From Chthoniobacteraceae bacterium (GTDB lineage Bacteria; Verrucomicrobiota; Verrucomicrobiia; Chthoniobacterales; Chthoniobacteraceae): a stretch of 26,225 bases of DNA. Under the pieces are notes generated by a model. It saw only the letters and a list, made by a program, of their open reading frames with translations, was not told where the DNA came from and searched no databases. Positions 16,290 to 23,131 of the stretch are shown one piece after another. Made by a program: the position numbers and the translations under genes. The stretch's first letter is position 1; every line of letters starts with the position of its first letter. Location of the stretch: NCBI GenBank assembly GCA_035550335.1, contig DASZPK010000724.1:1-26225 (forward strand). Reading direction: 5' to 3'.

Positions 16290-17900
16290 TTACGCCGGCA
16301 GCTTTTTCCGCCGCAACAAGCGTTGCATCATGAACGGAAAGAGCCAGAAGAGATTCATGAACCAAACGTACCGGATCACCACGCCGGCAATGCGGAAAAA
16401 GCGGTTATGAAAGACGAACGCGCGCGCGACCGCGTCGTTCGCGTGCGCGGCAAGGGCGGCTCCGCCCACGGCATACGACCGTGCCGCGGCGACGCCGCCC
16501 ACCGCCGCCTTCGCGCCAAGCGCACAACCGCCGAATGCAAACCAGCCCGCCGCCAATCCGCCAAACACCCATACTCCGAGCGCAAAGCCTCCCATGCTCG
16601 CCAAGCCCAATGCAAACCCGCCGAACGTCATCAACCCTGCGCCCACCCCGCCGAGGCTCACCGGCGCAATCGCGACCCCGCCAAACGCAAAGATGGCGCC
16701 AATGGCCACATCGCCCGCGGCAAACCATGCCACGACCGCCCTCCTACGCGCGACAGCCTCGCAACCGAATCGGATGTGGACCAGCGGAATTCCCAGCAAC
16801 TCGAGACGGCTTCGGTATTCGAAATGCGGGCCGGGATTTTGCTGGGCGCTTTCGCCACCGGCTGATGCCCGCGCCGCCCTCTTTCGGGCCATTTCCGCCC
16901 AGACGATCAGGGCCGCGACGGCGAACGCGTAGGTAATCATCACGCCGATCATCAACCGCGCATAGAGCACCGGGTCGTTCTTCTCCATCGGCTGCCCCAA
17001 AATCGCCAGCGACGACACAATCACCGCAAACGGGATCACAAGCATCGCCATGGCCCTGTAGAATTTCCGAATATAATCGCGGGACTCCGGCGATCGCGCC
17101 GATTCCATGCTGTACCGGTAGCTGGCATACGTGCCGAAGAACGCCAGCAGCGGCGCGAGCAGCGCCCCGGCCGCGCCCATCGATGCGACGGCCTTCGCCG
17201 ACGCGCTCCCCTTCGTCACCACCGCTCCCGCTGCGGCGGCTTTTGTCGAGACCACGAGCGCAGGCAGCGCCGCCAGCACCGCAATCGTGAACGCTCTGCC
17301 GGGCGCGCTCCTGGACAACGCGCTCTCCACGGTTTTCGCCACGCGCTCATTCAGCATCACCCGGCCACGCGAGAGGCGCTGGCGCACTGCTTCCTGGGAG
17401 AGTTCGAGCGCGGCCGCCACCTTTTCCACCGACTGGGCTTCGCGGTAATAAAGCACCATCGGCTCGCGGTAATCCGCCGGGATGGTCTCCAGCGCGCGCC
17501 ACATCAGCGCCTCCTCCTCATTGCTGACCGCCATCTCATGCGGATTCCCCCCCGGGGAACATGTCTCCGGCGGCAACTCATCCGCCCGCGCCGTCGGCAC
17601 CCGCTGCTGTGCGCGCTCGGAATTGTTCACCAGATTGCGCGCGATCCCGCACAGCCATGATTTCAGCTTTTCCGGCTCCTTGAGGTCGCCCAACTTCCGC
17701 CATGCCGCGATGAAGGTGTCCTGGGCCAGGTCCTCGCTCCGTCCAACATCCCCGCACGCGCTGTACGCGACGGCGCAGATGATGGATTGGTACCGCGAGA
17801 CAATCCGCTCAAACGCACGCCGGTCGCCCCGCAGGCAAAGCTCGACCAGGCGCGAGTCGCTCGCTGATTCATTTTCCAAAATGGTTTTCATATTCACCAT
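16290..17900 (-). CDS. ECF sigma factor fused to a C-terminal multi-TM, Gly-rich membrane domain
   Basis: Region 2: DRRAFERIVSRYQ...SEDLAQDTFIAAW...SWLCGIARN. Region 4: IPADYREPMVLYYRE...VAAALELSQEAVRQRLSRGR. Then TM helices and FEYRSRLELLGIPLVHIRFG followed by Gly/Ala-rich hydrophobic repeats. Start is 17900 or 17891. Confidence 0.9.
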   Translation of the reverse strand: MVNMKTILENESASDSRLVELCLRGDRRAFERIVSRYQSIICAVAYSACGDVGRSEDLAQDTFIAAWRKLGDLKEPEKLKSWLCGIARNLVNNSERAQQRVPTARADELPPETCSPGGNPHEMAVSNEEEALMWRALETIPADYREPMVLYYREAQSVEKVAAALELSQEAVRQRLSRGRVMLNERVAKTVESALSRSAPGRAFTIAVLAALPALVVSTKAAAAGAVVTKGSASAKAVASMGAAGALLAPLLAFFGTYASYRYSMESARSPESRDYIRKFYRAMAMLVIPFAVIVSSLAILGQPMEKNDPVLYARLMIGVMITYAFAVAALIVWAEMARKRAARASAGGESAQQNPGPHFEYRSRLELLGIPLVHIRFGCEAVARRRAVVAWFAAGDVAIGAIFAFGGVAIAPVSLGGVGAGLMTFGGFALGLASMGGFALGVWVFGGLAAGWFAFGGCALGAKAAVGGVAAARSYAVGGAALAAHANDAVARAFVFHNRFFRIAGVVIRYVWFMNLFWLFPFMMQRLLRRKKLPA

Positions 17901-17919
17901 TCCAGTGGTTGGCACTCAC

Positions 17920-17989: not shown

Positions 17990-20900
17990 TTACGCGTTCG
18001 CGCCCGCCACGTCCTTCTCCGCCGCCGGCGCGGTCCTGCCCGCGAGCTTGGCGGCGGCGGACTTGATCCAGTCGGCGTCGGGCATGGCGTAGGGGCGGAA
18101 GGTTTCGAGGACGCCTTCGCGCTCGTTGAAGAAAATTGCGCGGTGCAGCCCGAGGGTGCTCGCCTTGGGCGAATCGATGAGGCTCGCGGAATCGTTCGCG
18201 CTCATCTGGAAGAGGACGCGCATTTCAAATTCGGTGAGGGCCTTGCGGTTGATGAACCGGTTTACATTGTTAAACGTGTCGACCGTGGCGATGATGTGGA
18301 TGCCGTGGCTGGCGCCCTCGGTCATCAGCTCGTTGAATTGCGCGGAGGCGCTGGGGCCCTCCTCGGAGCTGCTCGAGAAGCTGAAGTCGTCCTCGGCGCG
18401 GAGTTTTTTGTAGCGCTGGAGGTCGTGGATGAAGAGGAAGATGGCGGGAGCGCTGGCATCGGCTTCGCCGGTTTCACTGCGGGATTTCAACTCGGCGGCG
18501 AGGGTGTTGATCGCGGCGGCGATGTCCTGCCCGCGCGCGATGGTGACCTCGTGCGGGATGGCGGCGACCACGCTCTCCATGAAATTCGCCTCGGGCGAGC
18601 CGGGCGGCGCGGCGTGGAGCAGGACGAATTTTGCCGTGCCGGCGGGGTATTGCGCGGAGAGGGCGAGCATCGACATCCCCATCATGGTGAGCGCGGATTC
18701 CTCGCGCTGGCCGATGATGAGCATGTTGCTGCCGGACTGGCGCGCGAACGCGGCCTCGGTCGGGCCCTTGATGGAATTCGGCGCGCCGAGCCATGCCTTG
18801 CCGGAATAGGGCGCGGCGGCGGGCGGGGCGTCGAGCGCGGCGATGAGGAGTTCGTTGTCGGTGATGTTCGCGGGGGCGTTGCCTTCGAACACGATGGGGC
18901 CGGGATATTTGCGGTCGTGGTGCTGGCCGGCGATGACGGTTACTTTTTCGAGCCACTGGTCGCGCTCCTCGTCGGAGAGCCACACGACCTGGAACGGGCT
19001 GTTCCCCTCAATCGCGCCGGCGGAATCGTTGTAGATGCCTTCGCCGGGGCGCGAGAGGAGGCGCGGGGCGGAGTTGTTCTCATCCATGATGAGATAGGCG
19101 TCGGCCTCGTTGCATTGCAGCGCCACGCGGATGACCATCTGGCCGAGCGTGGCGCGGGCGAGCGAATACGCGCCGCCGAGCGTCTGCGAGCCGAGCAGCA
19201 CGTGGATGCCGAAGGCGCGGCCCTGGCGCACAATGCGGTCGAACAGGAGCGAGGCGGTCTGCGCGATGATGTCGTCCTCCACAAAAAATTCCTGGAACTC
19301 GTCGATGAGCAGCAGCGAGCGGGGCATCGGCTCCGTGCCGCCTTCGCGCTTGTAGCCGGCCACATCCTGCACGCCGAGCTTGCGGAAGAGGTCGCCGCGC
19401 CGGCGCAACTCGGCATCGACGCGCTGGAGGACGCTGAGCGCGAACTCGCGGTCGCTCTCGATGGCGACGACCTTCGCGTGCGGGAGATGCTTGGTGGCGT
19501 AGCACTTGAACTCAACGCCTTTTTTGAAGTCGATGAGGTAGAATTCCACCTCGTCGGGGCTGCACCAAAGGGCGAGGTTTGTGATAATAACGTGAAACAA
19601 CGTCGATTTGCCCGAACCGGTCTTGCCGGCGAAGAGGGCGTGCTGGCGCGTGCCTTTGCCGATGGCGAGATATTGGAACTTCGTCGCGCCGGTGCGGCCT
19701 ACGGCCACTTTCAGCTCGTTCGTGGTGGAGTTGGTCCACATCTCCTCGGGTTTCGGCGCGATCTGGAGGAACGGGACTTCGACGCGGTTCGAGTCGATGC
19801 TCGCCTTGCCGATCTTGTGGCTGAGCGTCACCGCCAGCTCGGGATCGGGCGGCGTGTCGAATGCGAGCGTGGCGCCCGGTTCGCCGGAGACGCGGGCGAG
19901 CGTGTAGTTGGGGCCGGTTTTGGAGAAGCAGATGCTGCTCTTGCGCAGCTCGGCGGGCACGAAACCATCGGGGAGCGGCTGGCGCTGGTCCCAATGAATG
20001 AGGGTGAAAATGCCGCACCTCGGGCCGCTGGCGGCGATGCTCTGGAGGCGCTTCGCGGCAATCTCGCTGAAATTCGCCGGGAAATCGGCCACGACTAGGA
20101 AATGATATTTCTCCGCCACGCTGCCGGCCTGCTCGTTGTATTCGGTGATCGTGGCGTATTCGTTGCGGAGATACATCTGGATCACTTTTTCGATGTGCTC
20201 GCTCAATTCGGCGAGGCGCTCCTCGATCTGGTCGCGCTGGGTCCAGATGCGGCGGTTGATGATGCTCTCCTCGTAATCGGAGAGGTGCATCAGGCCCGCG
20301 AAACTCTCGCCGAGGCCCACGGGATCAATGATGGTGAAGCTCAATTTCCCCGGCGGCGTGGTCGCGAGCAGCCGGAGGATGATGTTGTTTAAAATGCCGG
20401 TGACTTCGCCGCCTCCCGACTCGTTCGTCTCGAATAGCACGGAGCCCTGGTCGGGATAGGTGATCGCGAGCGGTAGGGAAATTTGCGCGGGGCCGGGCAA
20501 CGCGAGACGCGGGTCTTTCGGCAGGCCGCCGGGTTGCTTGGCGAGATCGACATCGAGGTGCGCGAATTTCGTTGCGGGCGTGAACTCGGTGGCGGGCTTC
20601 CATGTTTCCACAAGCTGCTGGTCCCATGCGGGGAACATCACCTTCGCGGAAGCGTTCATCTCGTCGAGCGCGGCGTAGAGCGGTGTGATCTCCTTTTTCC
20701 AATCGGCGGTGGCCTCGTCCCACTTCGTTTTTTCCTCGGCGGCGACGGCGGCGGCCTCGGTGTTGTAGGTGGCGGTGTATTGCTCCTTGAGCGCGAGCGC
20801 CTCGGTGGTGTAGCGGCCAAGCTTGCGCTCGCGGGAGGCCTTCAATTCGTCGAGCTTGCGCCCGAGGATCTGGTCGATCTTCGCCGTGATGCGCGGGGGC

Positions 20901-21913
20901 TGGACTTCCATTTTGCGGCGGATGCGCGTTTCGTATTCGCCCTCGATCTGGTTCGCACGGCCCCACTGCTGCTGCAATTCCGCGAGCGTGCGGTCGTGCT
21001 CGGCCTGGATGCGCGCGCGGTCCTGCTCGAGCGAGCCCGAGGCGCTCGCGACGGCGGCGGTGCCCGTGACCATGATCGCGCGAGCGGTGACGATGGAATT
21101 CGCCACCTGCGTGCCGACCGGTTTCGCTTTTTTCAACCCGGACGAATAAACCGCAAAGAGCCCCACCCACAACGCGAACGTGACCGCCCCGCCGATCGGA
21201 ATCCCGAGCGGCGAATGCTGCATGGCAAACCAGAGCCCCGCCCCGGGCAGGAGCGCGAGGAACAACAATACCGGCAACGGCATGCTGCGGAAAAACTTCG
21301 GGAGCGGGAATTCCTCGAACACCGCGAGGTGTTGCTCGGCCTCGCGGAAATGATTGGCAAGATCGTTGAAATGCTCGGGCGAGACCGCGGCCTTGCGGCG
21401 CAGCATGCGCTTGAGCGCGCCGTAGCCGGAGAGGGCCTTGCGCGCGCGCAGCTCGAGGTCCTTGAGCGTCTGCTTGTTCACGTCGAGCTTCGTCGTGAAA
21501 TTGGTGAACGACCCCTCGGCCTTCTCCATCTCGGTTTTCAATTTCCGCTCGGCGAGGAAATTTTTCATCTGGAGGTCGCCCATCCAGCGCTGCTTCACCT
21601 CCTTCGCTTTCATCGGGAGGTTGCGCAGGGAATTGGCGCGGAATTTTTCCACGCGCGCGCGCCGCGTCTCGTAGACGCCCTTCACGTGCTTGCGCGTGTT
21701 TTCATACGCCTCCTCCATCTGCGAGGTGTATTGCTGGAGGCCCGACTCCGTGTGGCGGATCGCATCCTGGCTCTTGCGCGTGGTGGAATAACGGCGCGCG
21801 CTGAGTTCCTGCCCGATCTGCTCCTCGCGCTTCACGAATTTCGCGACGGTCTGCTTGAGGTTCGCGAGGAGATCGAGGCTCCGGTTGAGTCGCAGATCGG
21901 CCCCCTTACTCAC
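17990..21913 (-). CDS. Membrane-anchored FtsK/SpoIIIE-family ATPase (EssC/EccC-like), 1307 aa
   Basis: N-terminal coiled coil, 2 TM helices, then another coiled coil. One intact ATPase domain with Walker A GKTGSGKS (19604-19627), YLIDFKKG, Walker B LLLIDEFQ and QGRAFGIH. It is flanked by two degenerate FtsK-like domains. GTG start overlaps the upstream stop by 8 bp. Confidence 0.92.
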   Translation of the reverse strand: MSKGADLRLNRSLDLLANLKQTVAKFVKREEQIGQELSARRYSTTRKSQDAIRHTESGLQQYTSQMEEAYENTRKHVKGVYETRRARVEKFRANSLRNLPMKAKEVKQRWMGDLQMKNFLAERKLKTEMEKAEGSFTNFTTKLDVNKQTLKDLELRARKALSGYGALKRMLRRKAAVSPEHFNDLANHFREAEQHLAVFEEFPLPKFFRSMPLPVLLFLALLPGAGLWFAMQHSPLGIPIGGAVTFALWVGLFAVYSSGLKKAKPVGTQVANSIVTARAIMVTGTAAVASASGSLEQDRARIQAEHDRTLAELQQQWGRANQIEGEYETRIRRKMEVQPPRITAKIDQILGRKLDELKASRERKLGRYTTEALALKEQYTATYNTEAAAVAAEEKTKWDEATADWKKEITPLYAALDEMNASAKVMFPAWDQQLVETWKPATEFTPATKFAHLDVDLAKQPGGLPKDPRLALPGPAQISLPLAITYPDQGSVLFETNESGGGEVTGILNNIILRLLATTPPGKLSFTIIDPVGLGESFAGLMHLSDYEESIINRRIWTQRDQIEERLAELSEHIEKVIQMYLRNEYATITEYNEQAGSVAEKYHFLVVADFPANFSEIAAKRLQSIAASGPRCGIFTLIHWDQRQPLPDGFVPAELRKSSICFSKTGPNYTLARVSGEPGATLAFDTPPDPELAVTLSHKIGKASIDSNRVEVPFLQIAPKPEEMWTNSTTNELKVAVGRTGATKFQYLAIGKGTRQHALFAGKTGSGKSTLFHVIITNLALWCSPDEVEFYLIDFKKGVEFKCYATKHLPHAKVVAIESDREFALSVLQRVDAELRRRGDLFRKLGVQDVAGYKREGGTEPMPRSLLLIDEFQEFFVEDDIIAQTASLLFDRIVRQGRAFGIHVLLGSQTLGGAYSLARATLGQMVIRVALQCNEADAYLIMDENNSAPRLLSRPGEGIYNDSAGAIEGNSPFQVVWLSDEERDQWLEKVTVIAGQHHDRKYPGPIVFEGNAPANITDNELLIAALDAPPAAAPYSGKAWLGAPNSIKGPTEAAFARQSGSNMLIIGQREESALTMMGMSMLALSAQYPAGTAKFVLLHAAPPGSPEANFMESVVAAIPHEVTIARGQDIAAAINTLAAELKSRSETGEADASAPAIFLFIHDLQRYKKLRAEDDFSFSSSSEEGPSASAQFNELMTEGASHGIHIIATVDTFNNVNRFINRKALTEFEMRVLFQMSANDSASLIDSPKASTLGLHRAIFFNEREGVLETFRPYAMPDADWIKSAAAKLAGRTAPAAEKDVAGANA

Positions 21914-22118
21914 AGTCGCTCCTCACTTTTTTCAAAAGGCCGTCGAGGTCCTGCATCACGCCCGCGGTGCGCGCGGCGTTCGCGGGGAGGTCCTCCAAAA
22001 ATTTGTGCGCGAACTCCCGGCTCTTGACGTCGTTCCAGAACGCCTTCACCTGGTCCCATTCGAACATGAGCTCCTTCACCGCCTGCTCCAAATTGCTTGC
22101 GCTTGCTTTTACACTCAT
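21906..22118 (-). CDS. Small WXG100-like protein (70 aa, W-N-D motif)
   Basis: C-terminal 70 aa of ORF 21906..22550, started at ATG 22118, which overlaps the upstream TGA (ATGA). LMFEWDQVKAFWNDVKSREFAHKF aligns without gaps to the WXG100 core of 22859..23131. Confidence 0.8.
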   Translation of the reverse strand: MSVKASASNLEQAVKELMFEWDQVKAFWNDVKSREFAHKFLEDLPANAARTAGVMQDLDGLLKKVRSDCE

Positions 22119-22705
22119 AAAGTTTCGTTTCCAGCCGGTTGCGATGCCGCTTCGGCGGTTTGGGCGGGTTGCCCCGCTTCGGGGGTTGTGGATGCCGGGA
22201 CGTCCGCGGGGAGCGCGGCATCTTCGGGGGGCGGGCCTTGCGTGTAGGCCGCGAGCGTGCGCTGCAGGGCCACGATATAGGCGATCGCGCGCGGCATGTC
22301 GTCGTCGAGGAAACTTTTCATCCCCTCCATGCGCTTGAGGATCGGGTCGGCGGCGCTGTCGAAATTCTGCGACCATTGTTTCACCAGGCGGAGTTTGCCC
22401 TGCGCCTCGCCGAGCGCGCGCTTCGCCCTTTCTAGCGCCTGGCGGCGGGTCATGAGGGCGGTCTCGTTGTTCTTCACGAGGCGGGCGCTCATGTAATCCT
22501 GCTGGAGCTGGTCGACCTTGCGGGAGATTTTGCGGATTTCGTTTTCCCAATGCACCACGCGGTCATGCTGGAGCCACATGCGGGTCGTGCGCGCCTCGTC
22601 GTTGGCATCGGCCACCGAGCGGCGGGCCTTGGTGAGAAAAATCACCAGCGCCGCCCGGATCATGTCGAGCGCGTCGAGGGAAGTAACTTTGGCCTGGTTG
22701 CCCAT
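22115..22705 (-). CDS. Helical coiled-coil protein, probable extended WXG100-like paralogue (196 aa)
   Basis: Amphipathic helices throughout. N- and C-terminal hydrophobic spacing matches the 90-aa WXG100 protein. Low-complexity Pro/Ala tail. Confidence 0.82.
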   Translation of the reverse strand: MGNQAKVTSLDALDMIRAALVIFLTKARRSVADANDEARTTRMWLQHDRVVHWENEIRKISRKVDQLQQDYMSARLVKNNETALMTRRQALERAKRALGEAQGKLRLVKQWSQNFDSAADPILKRMEGMKSFLDDDMPRAIAYIVALQRTLAAYTQGPPPEDAALPADVPASTTPEAGQPAQTAEAASQPAGNETL

Positions 22706-22730
22706 TTGGTGTTAGCGAGGGGTCGGGATT

Positions 22731-22825
22731 TTAAACACAGAGATACGGAGGAGACAGAGAGACACGGAGAAATATTTCGAGTTTCCCTCTGTGAATCTCT
22801 GTCTCCTCCGTATCTCTGTGTTTAA
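22731..22825. repeat. Perfect 30-bp inverted repeat (95-bp hairpin, TTAA at both ends)
   Basis: TTAAACACAGAGATACGGAGGAGACAGAGA (22731-22760) and TCTCTGTCTCCTCCGTATCTCTGTGTTTAA (22796-22825). Confidence 0.92.
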
Positions 22826-22858
22826 GTAAAGAGCCCGCATCGCGATGTGTGATGTCGT

Positions 22859-23131
22859 TTAACGCTGCTCCAGGTATTGCTCGATGCGCTGCGCTTTGCG
22901 GAGCAGGTAGGGCGTCTGCTTTTCGGAGATCTCGACGAATTTTTTGAGCACCTTCATCGTGGTGATGAACTCCTCGCCGAATTTCGCGCTGTCCTGGTCC
23001 TGCCACGTCGCGCCGAGGGCGGCGAACCGCGCCTGGAGCGAGGCCGCCTTGGCCTGCACGTCCTCGTTGAAGCGTTTCAATTCCGAGGCAAACTTGCGGA
23101 CCTCCTCGGGGTCCATGATCGCTTGAGCCAT
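22859..23131 (-). CDS. WXG100/ESAT-6-like protein (90 aa, W-Q-D variant)
   Basis: About 90 aa helix-turn-helix. N-terminal IMDPEEVRKFASELKRF, central LGATWQDQDSAKF, C-terminal YLLRKAQRIEQYL. Next to an FtsK ATPase. Confidence 0.88.
   Translation of the reverse strand: MAQAIMDPEEVRKFASELKRFNEDVQAKAASLQARFAALGATWQDQDSAKFGEEFITTMKVLKKFVEISEKQTPYLLRKAQRIEQYLEQR

Follow-up and report, generated by a model that had tools for sequence, protein, structure and literature searches.

A contig from a Chthoniobacteraceae bacterium (Verrucomicrobiota) carries a four-gene cassette that we interpret, with moderate confidence, as a stripped-down type VII-like protein exporter acting across the inner membrane of a diderm, lipopolysaccharide (LPS)-bearing cell. 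The window, meaning the whole 26,225-bp stretch of DNA analyzed, is an entire contig (DASZPK010000724.1) of a soil metagenome-assembled genome (MAG; GCA_035550335.1; 756 contigs, 83% complete). The names carried by homologues likewise point to Chthoniobacterales/Chthoniobacteraceae. The cassette lies on the minus strand, as do all of its features described below. It consists of a 90-aa WXG100 gene (22859-23131), a 196-aa long coiled-coil hairpin gene (22115-22705), a 70-aa short helical hairpin gene (21906-22118), and a gene for a 1307-aa EssC/EccC-like FtsK/SpoIIIE ATPase that starts with GTG (17990-21913).

These four co-directional open reading frames (ORFs) and their two overlaps are present where the original prediction, made from the letters of the DNA, had placed them. 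The 196-aa and 70-aa genes share an ATGA overlap at 22115-22118, and the 70-aa and ATPase genes share a GTGAGTAA overlap at 21906-21913; both were read directly in the sequence and suggest translational coupling. This agrees with the earlier proposal that the last three genes are coupled, while the position of the 90-aa gene calls for a qualification: it is set apart by 153 bp here and mostly by 3-12 bp in orthologous loci. All four are genuine genes rather than chance ORFs, since orthologues of each keep the same order in complete orthologous loci. The host had been described as an apparent diderm, and it is one, because its genome encodes both Omp85/BamA and LpxC. The base composition of the cassette resembles that of the remainder of the contig.

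Several lines of evidence favor the exporter reading. At the level of sequence, the 90-aa protein scores above the Pfam cut-off for WXG100 proteins, the ATPase matches EccC and EssC far better than FtsK, and the degenerate-active-degenerate order of its modules, conserved in 26 orthologues from two phyla, fits a class described by Zhang et al. (2012). The gene overlaps, the co-occurrence of WXG100 and ATPase genes and the conserved four-gene order point in the same direction, as do the membrane hairpin of the ATPase and the small proteins, which are devoid of signal peptides and hydrophobic segments. By analogy, a toxin and immunity pair inside a related cassette on a Helicobacter plasmid may be added to this list.

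The WXG100 protein and the ATPase

The 90-aa protein matches Pfam PF06013 over residues 6-85 with 36.8 bits, against a cut-off of 27.3. A search of the whole genome agrees, and the genome holds this single WXG100 match. When a profile of 12 orthologues was compared to the PDB, the best match was Helicobacter pylori HP0062 (3fx7; E value, 6e-9), followed by Bacillus anthracis EsxB and Staphylococcus aureus EsxA. The resemblance to HP0062, which the original prediction had pointed out, is thus borne out. The motif W43-Q-D45 is invariant across the 12 orthologues and aligns with W-R-D of HP0062. The crystal structure of HP0062 is a WXG100-type hairpin (PMC3397514), with W-R-D at the bend, and its gene clusters with an FtsK/SpoIIIE gene (PMC3397514; PMC4978471). 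Among relatives with solved structures, HP0062 (3FX7 and 2GTS) is closest to the 90-aa protein; it shares both the replacement of W-x-G by W-x-D and the nearby FtsK/SpoIIIE gene, that of HP0066. On sequence criteria, the 90-aa protein is a true WXG100 protein of an HP0062-like subfamily and the sole one among the three small proteins. Its relatives are 69-87% identical within the family and 48-50% identical in Planctomycetota (50% in Urbifossiella), with a mean column identity of 87%, and at least 428 species genomes encode one.

The ATPase matches PF01580 with 113 bits. Among the NCBIfam models, EccCa, EccCb and EssC gave E values of 1e-33 to 1e-26, all below the model cut-offs, versus 9e-8 for FtsK; the score against the EssC equivalog TIGR03928 was 92 bits, short of its cut-off of 778. 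A similar ranking was obtained against PDB sequences, with E values of 8e-30 for Thermomonospora curvata EccC, 2.5e-27 for EccC5, 1.5e-19 for YukB and 3e-10 for FtsK; in bits, EccC/EssC chains reached 107 versus 42 for FtsK. An assignment as an FtsK/SpoIIIE DNA translocase was rejected, as the similarity to FtsK is well below that to EccC/EssC (no specific search for the gamma domain was made). A separate canonical FtsK is encoded in the same genome (contig C753; 215 bits to PF01580). The 150 listed representatives of clusters at 50% identity all match the ATPase at E values of <1e-245.

The domain order of the ATPase is a coiled coil, a membrane hairpin, a second coiled coil and three FtsK-type modules. 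Residues 1-205 (21299-21913) form a putative N-terminal cytoplasmic helical region that is charged and heptad-like, with a coiled coil read from sequence and a low column conservation of 0.33. This region is followed by a two-helix membrane hairpin at residues 210-256 (21146-21286), for which hydropathy gives only two segments, 210-232 and 235-256, connected by a loop of ~6 residues. The residues flanking the two helices are basic, and both ends of the protein would therefore lie in the cytoplasm.

The three modules were compared in an alignment of 26 orthologues from Verrucomicrobiota and Planctomycetota. The first module, D0 (residues 471-720; 19754-20503), is degenerate: it matches PF01580 weakly at residues ~506-607, has no Walker A motif and carries A[DN]F in place of DE. 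The middle module, D1 (residues 721-990; 18944-19753), aligns to D1 of EccC/EssC and has intact Walker A and B motifs, which translate directly as GKTGSGKS at 19604-19627 and LLLIDEF at 19295-19315. These motifs are kept in 26/26 orthologues from both phyla (GK or GR followed by TGSGKS; DEF), and the column conservation of the module is 0.79. The third module, D2 (residues 991-1290; 18044-18943), is again degenerate, with GQxxE replacing the P-loop and no acidic Walker B. D1 is thus predicted from its Walker motifs to be the only catalytic module, given that the P-loop is missing from D0 and D2 in all 26 orthologues.

Hairpin proteins and conservation of the cassette

The 70-aa protein matches no Pfam or NCBIfam family, and only 4 of 58 members of its own family match the WXG100 Pfam model weakly (best E value, 0.024). 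Its AlphaFold2 model (predicted local distance difference test [pLDDT], 94) consists of helices 3-27, 31-41 and 44-69, with W28-x-D30 at the kink and L44-P45 at the turn. Residues W21, W28, D30, F36, P45 and C69 are invariant in the family. Among 48,161 chains, the best natural matches of the model are WXG100 proteins, namely, EsxEF (Z, 8.0) and HP0062 (Z, 7.8; root mean square deviation, 1.9 Å over 68 residues; 18% identity), followed by EsxA (Z, 7.5) within a group of EsxA, EsxOP, PE25 and EsxA/B at Z values of 7.0-7.5, although Z values below ~13 can reflect a common helical arrangement and are frequent among helical hairpins. The model is thus suggestive, but not decisive, of a WXG100-like shape. 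The family comprises 534 homologue clusters, and the Urbifossiella homologue was aligned with a probability of 94.6% in hhalign.

The 196-aa protein likewise matches no Pfam or NCBIfam family. It is modeled by AlphaFold2 as one hairpin of helices 2-76 and 81-155 (pLDDT, 86 overall and ~97 over the hairpin), followed by a disordered Pro/Ala-rich tail at residues 156-196. The model matches only generic long coiled coils, including Smc arms, HlyD, F-BAR and YscO homologues, all under the bound for helical noise, and no WXG100 chain occurs among its 50 best structural matches. Across 54 homologues, W44, W53, W111 and Y154 do not vary; there are 476 homologue clusters, and the Urbifossiella homologue reached an hhalign probability of 98.7%. 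Foldseek searches of the 70-aa and 196-aa models against the PDB returned generic hairpins, none at an E value of ≤0.001.

The original prediction had counted three WXG100-fold genes. This number does not hold as it stands: the 90-aa protein qualifies by sequence and the 70-aa protein is WXG100-shaped by its model, but the 196-aa protein is a coiled-coil hairpin of double length. Paralogy of the three small proteins was considered but is not shown, as the three pairwise hhalign comparisons were all nonsignificant (probabilities against the 90-aa family of 1.3% for the 70-aa and 0.4% for the 196-aa family).

A hydropathy scan revealed no hydrophobic segment or signal peptide in any of the three small proteins, and the known type VII export signal YxxxD/E is not present in them. 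The last helices of the 90-aa protein (residues 75-86; 22874-22909) and the 196-aa protein (residues 143-154; 22244-22279) both end in [YFW]-L-x6-[ILV]-x2-Y. The closing tyrosines, Y86 and Y154, are invariant, and the same end pattern is found in HP0062 and the Urbifossiella homologues. This pattern could be a shared recognition motif or mere heptad spacing.

The four-gene order is kept in 12/12 loci from other genera of the family and also occurs in other classes of Verrucomicrobiota. Further carriers are Chthoniobacter flavus Ellin428 (L085:7001-11866) and MAGs of Prosthecobacter, Phragmitibacter and Methylacidiphilales. In Planctomycetota, the cassette is found in Urbifossiella limnaea and a Pirellulales MAG; these were reached via cluster names and encoding contigs, as the best 80 hits of a contig scan for other phyla were from Verrucomicrobiota only. 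Exceptions to the gene order are fragments at contig ends and one locus in which the 70-aa gene was undetected. Among 41 relatives, 19 encode both the WXG100 protein and the large ATPase, 21 encode neither, and the remaining one, a 75%-complete genome, has an ATPase fragment only. The distribution is patchy: about two thirds of the sampled genomes of the family have the cassette, but of 400 genomes from elsewhere in the phylum, only 8 matched strongly. No fifth gene recurs with the cassette, the most frequent family being present in 8 of 78 orthologous loci (≥9 kb), and none was found among a set of 13 loci either. The neighborhood survey called for by the original prediction thus shows a conserved four-gene cassette whose flanks are not conserved.

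A number of loci deviate from the common arrangement. In Urbifossiella limnaea (CP036273.1), the cassette ATPase (L131:8001-12722) is 1573 aa long and has an N-terminal Ser/Thr kinase domain, and a 965-aa kinase gene (L131:3958-6855) lies just upstream of the WXG100 gene. These kinases hint at control by phosphorylation, which has been proposed for several Gram-positive type VII variants. Kinase genes are near the cassette in only five other loci, and the HSP70 and Band_7 neighbors of the Urbifossiella locus recur at no other locus. In Pirellulales (L132:1542-1814 and L133:1329-1601), a second 90-aa gene with no Pfam match is located just upstream of the WXG100 gene; it is possibly a divergent paralogue of the WXG100 gene, which would make this a five-gene variant. 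In a relative assembled as a single contig (L018:12136-13160), the 90-aa and 196-aa orthologues read into other frames, giving ORFs of 169 aa and 243 aa with unrelated tails, which reflects either frameshifts of the long-read assembly or a decaying cassette.

Related systems, export model and competing explanations

Cassettes of this kind have been recognized computationally before. Zhang et al. (2012; Table 1, footnote 6) listed for these phyla a "solo WXG" accompanied by a YueA-like ATPase of three modules, of which the middle one is active, and named the class a mobile version of the T7SS (type VII secretion system). The present cassette has the same stand-alone WXG100 gene in one operon with a three-module, middle-active ATPase, in Verrucomicrobia as well as Planctomycetes. 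It differs from the footnote in its two extra hairpin genes and in the N-terminal coiled-coil/membrane-hairpin half of the ATPase, which are unnamed there. The term "mobile" is weakly borne out: contexts vary, but the cassette is nearly absent from plasmids. Sutcliffe (2011) is cited for WXG100 proteins in Verrucomicrobia. Uchiyama et al. (2016) called a WxG protein plus FtsK "a minimal set" of the T7SS and named HP0062 and HP0066, and a 2024 survey of T7SS variants covers Gram-positive bacteria only (PMC11217815). The cassette was originally presented as a distinct, uncharacterised module. In the experimental sense this stands; computationally it does not, given the class description of 2012 and the report of verrucomicrobial WXG100 proteins in 2011. 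The cassette is well defined and widely conserved, and it belongs to a kind already known from computation.

Similar to the T7SSb (Ess) and T7SSa (ESX) systems, the cassette combines a WXG100 gene with a membrane-bound multimodule FtsK/SpoIIIE ATPase in which D1 is the motor. However, the cassette ATPase has three P-loop-like modules rather than a DUF plus three, and it has no FHA domains. A further difference is the diderm-LPS host, in which EssB, EsaA, EccB and EccD were not found. The search for these parts covered five genomes, comprising this MAG and four relatives of at least 96% completeness, including a single-contig assembly. YukC/EssB, EsaA and YukD (PF10140, TIGR03929, PF08817) were not found in the five genomes, while a B. 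subtilis control matched (EssA was not searched); EccB and EccD (PF05108, TIGR03920) were not found in them either, while a Corynebacterium glutamicum control matched (EccE and MycP were not searched). The earlier statement that canonical T7SS membrane parts are missing thus holds for EssB, EsaA, YukD, EccB and EccD. To our knowledge, a membrane scaffold is required in every T7SS studied, and each of these systems needs several membrane proteins besides its ATPase.

Relatives of the ATPase occur on 5 of 72,556 plasmids, at 27-34% identity. The plasmid NZ_AP024820.1 of Helicobacter sp. NHP19-012 (L134:2761-7163) carries, in this order, a WXG100-like gene, the genes of a WHH (HNH-type) nuclease (340 aa) and a SUKH immunity protein, a gene for a 77-aa product and the gene of an FtsK-type ATPase (823 aa). 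The WHH domain ends the 340-aa protein. A toxin-immunity pair thus resides inside a solo-WXG cassette. This cassette differs from ours in its WHH nuclease and SUKH genes and in its ATPase, which is devoid of the N-terminal coiled-coil/membrane-hairpin half. On a Caballeronia plasmid, the gene order is VWA, WXG100, 436 aa, 113 aa, 76 aa and a 927-aa ATPase, followed by CARF, VWA, PP2C and kinase genes. A simple hydropathy scan gave no clear membrane hairpin for either plasmid ATPase, and the N-terminal coiled-coil/membrane-hairpin half is missing from the Caballeronia ATPase as well. Homology of the 196-aa and 70-aa proteins to the products of the same-slot genes on the two plasmids was also considered, and none was detectable.

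The Caballeronia arrangement is of the type of the TerY-phosphorylation-triad (TerY-P) islands, which (PMC4978471, citing its reference 46) combine a WXG100 gene with an FtsK-type ATPase. In common with our cassette, it has a gene of ~76 aa that overlaps the start of the ATPase gene; some loci of the Planctomycetes-Verrucomicrobia-Chlamydiae (PVC) group also show a link to kinases. TerY-P islands differ in their additional VWA, PP2C, kinase and CARF genes and in an ATPase that has no membrane hairpin, whereas the cassette in the window has no such neighbors. The LXG toxins of T7SSb with their Lap1/Lap2 partners (PMC10801868) serve as a working analogy only, in that a long hairpin and small WXG100-like hairpins are encoded beside an ATPase. 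Unlike LXG toxins, the 196-aa family has no LXG or DUF3130 match, a nonsignificant one to DUF3958 (4/54 members; best E value, 0.044) and no toxin domain.

In the export model, the ATPase would probably form a ring, by analogy with EccC/EssC hexamers. Its two-helix hairpin would anchor this ring in the inner membrane, with 12 helices per hexamer, and energy would come from the single active module D1. The three hairpin proteins would be clients or co-factors of the ATPase that do without signal peptides, the WXG100 protein and the 70-aa hairpin probably being dimeric core or adaptor subunits and the 155-residue long hairpin with its flexible tail the likely passenger. The main reason for reading the 196-aa hairpin as cargo-like is that the same slot on the Helicobacter plasmid holds a toxin-immunity pair, and pairs of the WHH/SUKH kind usually denote exported toxins. 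As no outer-membrane part is linked to the cassette, the destination would be the periplasm or the surface of the inner membrane; how substrates pass a second membrane is unsettled for type VII systems in general. A bolder version of the model seems unlikely to us: here, the ATPase hexamer, which has 12 membrane helices and no scaffold of the EssB/EccB type, would on its own be a complete translocase of the inner membrane that moves folded helical bundles. It would export a three-hairpin hetero-oligomer to the PVC periplasm, where the 110-Å hairpin and its Pro/Ala tail would have a role in the envelope that is specific to Planctomycetes and Verrucomicrobia. If the ATPase alone were indeed the translocase, no type VII-like machine would be simpler, and none would have been shown earlier to work in a diderm-LPS cell.

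Several observations weigh against export. No outer-membrane or periplasmic partner is linked to the cassette at the 78 loci, the periplasmic loop of the ATPase has only ~6 residues, and the canonical membrane scaffold was not found in the five genomes. The ATPases of the proteobacterial plasmids, and perhaps the kinase-fused ATPase of Urbifossiella, show no clear membrane hairpin by hydropathy, which argues that the family can work unanchored. The WXG100 protein is more conserved than the motor (87% mean column identity), which fits a machine part or regulator at least as well as a secreted product. For the 196-aa and 70-aa proteins, profile comparisons detected no sequence link to T7SS substrates already known, and a survey of the literature on WXG100 proteins, type VII secretion or ESAT-6 in Planctomycetes or Verrucomicrobia found no experimental work.

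Some of these points fit a nonsecretory function, an explanation that we regard as credible but rather unlikely. The tethered ATPase would then act on cytoplasmic protein complexes or DNA, with the hairpins as regulators, adaptors or a FliJ/YscO-like stalk, and the function could lie in signaling, the stress response or conflict-related DNA handling. Beyond the very high conservation of the WXG100 protein and the missing outer-membrane partner, it draws on the anchor-less relatives, which lie in islands of the TerY-P type alongside VWA, PP2C, Ser/Thr kinase and CARF genes (PMC4978471), and on the kinase fused to the Urbifossiella ATPase. A stalk is suggested by the full-length structural match of the 196-aa model to CT670, a homologue of YscO (Z, 10.2 across 155 residues), and by weak matches of 7/54 family members to the YscO Pfam model, but the YscO, FliJ and Smc matches are within the range for any long coiled coil. 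Moreover, the ATPase is closer to EccC/EssC than to DNA translocases, and in the Verrucomicrobiota and Pirellulales examples checked, the PVC ATPase keeps its membrane hairpin. A role in defence, which the original prediction had considered, gains nothing from the locus, as no defence genes were found in the window or the conserved flanks, and the PADLOC matches (SspH, mad8, HerA) reflect the shared FtsK domain only.

A mobile system of interbacterial conflict is an improbable alternative. Its toxin cargo would be lost or encoded elsewhere, with the core exporting polymorphic toxins from other loci. The designation of the class as mobile by Zhang et al. (2012), a context that differs at almost every locus, the patchy distribution and the toxin-immunity pair within the Helicobacter cassette would all fit such a system. 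Against this stand the rarity and divergence of the plasmid relatives, the contig-like base composition and the four intact genes conserved across two phyla, together with a window and conserved flanks in which no toxin or immunity gene was found, and a single WXG100 match in the genome itself. Extra sub-threshold WXG100 matches in relatives were examined as possible toxin substrates and rejected: they fall in long ORFs that have only coiled-coil-type or no informative Pfam matches and no toxin domain. Inner-membrane remodeling or repair, with hairpins that polymerize like PspA, Vipp1 or ESCRT-III and an ATPase that disassembles the polymers, appears highly improbable. The small proteins are indeed helical hairpins, and ESCRT-III and PspA chains occur low in the structural match lists, but these matches are no better than those to many unrelated coiled coils, and Pfam searches gave no sequence similarity to PspA or Vipp1. 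In addition, ESCRT-III and PspA systems use other types of ATPase.

The cassette offers the smallest natural test case for what an EssC/EccC-type motor can achieve with WXG100 hairpins alone. It spans two diderm phyla and includes the cultured Chthoniobacter flavus Ellin428 and Urbifossiella limnaea. Since the computational recognition is old, its value lies in experiment rather than in discovery; the window adds one member and helps to show that the unit takes in another two hairpin genes but not a fifth gene.

Genomic surroundings of the cassette

The neighbors of the cassette in the window include genes for an extracytoplasmic function (ECF) sigma factor, a thioredoxin-like protein, a TPR protein and an ethanolamine ammonia-lyase; no toxin, immunity or defence gene is among them. 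The original wording that there is "nothing else" beside the four genes is accurate in that the window has no toxin, immunity or T7SS membrane gene and no neighboring family occurs in more than 8 of the 78 loci. Beside the ATPase gene, the product of the ORF at 16290-17915 joins regions 2 and 4 of an ECF sigma factor to a long membrane domain rich in Gly/Ala. Since just 3 of 13 loci have a related ORF close to the cassette, the fusion gene is probably not part of the module.

A 254-nt contig from a soil metatranscriptome maps to 22463-22716, the 5' part of the 196-aa gene, with 97% identity. This single transcript contig, too little to address expression or operon structure, gives a faint hint that a close relative transcribes the 196-aa gene.

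The spacer between the 90-aa and 196-aa genes (22706-22858) contains a palindromic repeat element at 22736-22820, without strand assignment, made up of two perfect 25-nt arms (22736-22760 and 22796-22820). As RNA, it would fold into a hairpin of -76 kcal/mol (z, -10.5). With up to three mismatches, the arm has 16 matches genome-wide versus 0 in the control, and the palindrome is a member of a dispersed genomic repeat family. It is missing from the orthologous loci with a short junction and is thus a local insertion, as that junction measures only 3-12 bp in most of them. At this position, the palindrome might uncouple or stabilize the WXG100 transcript.

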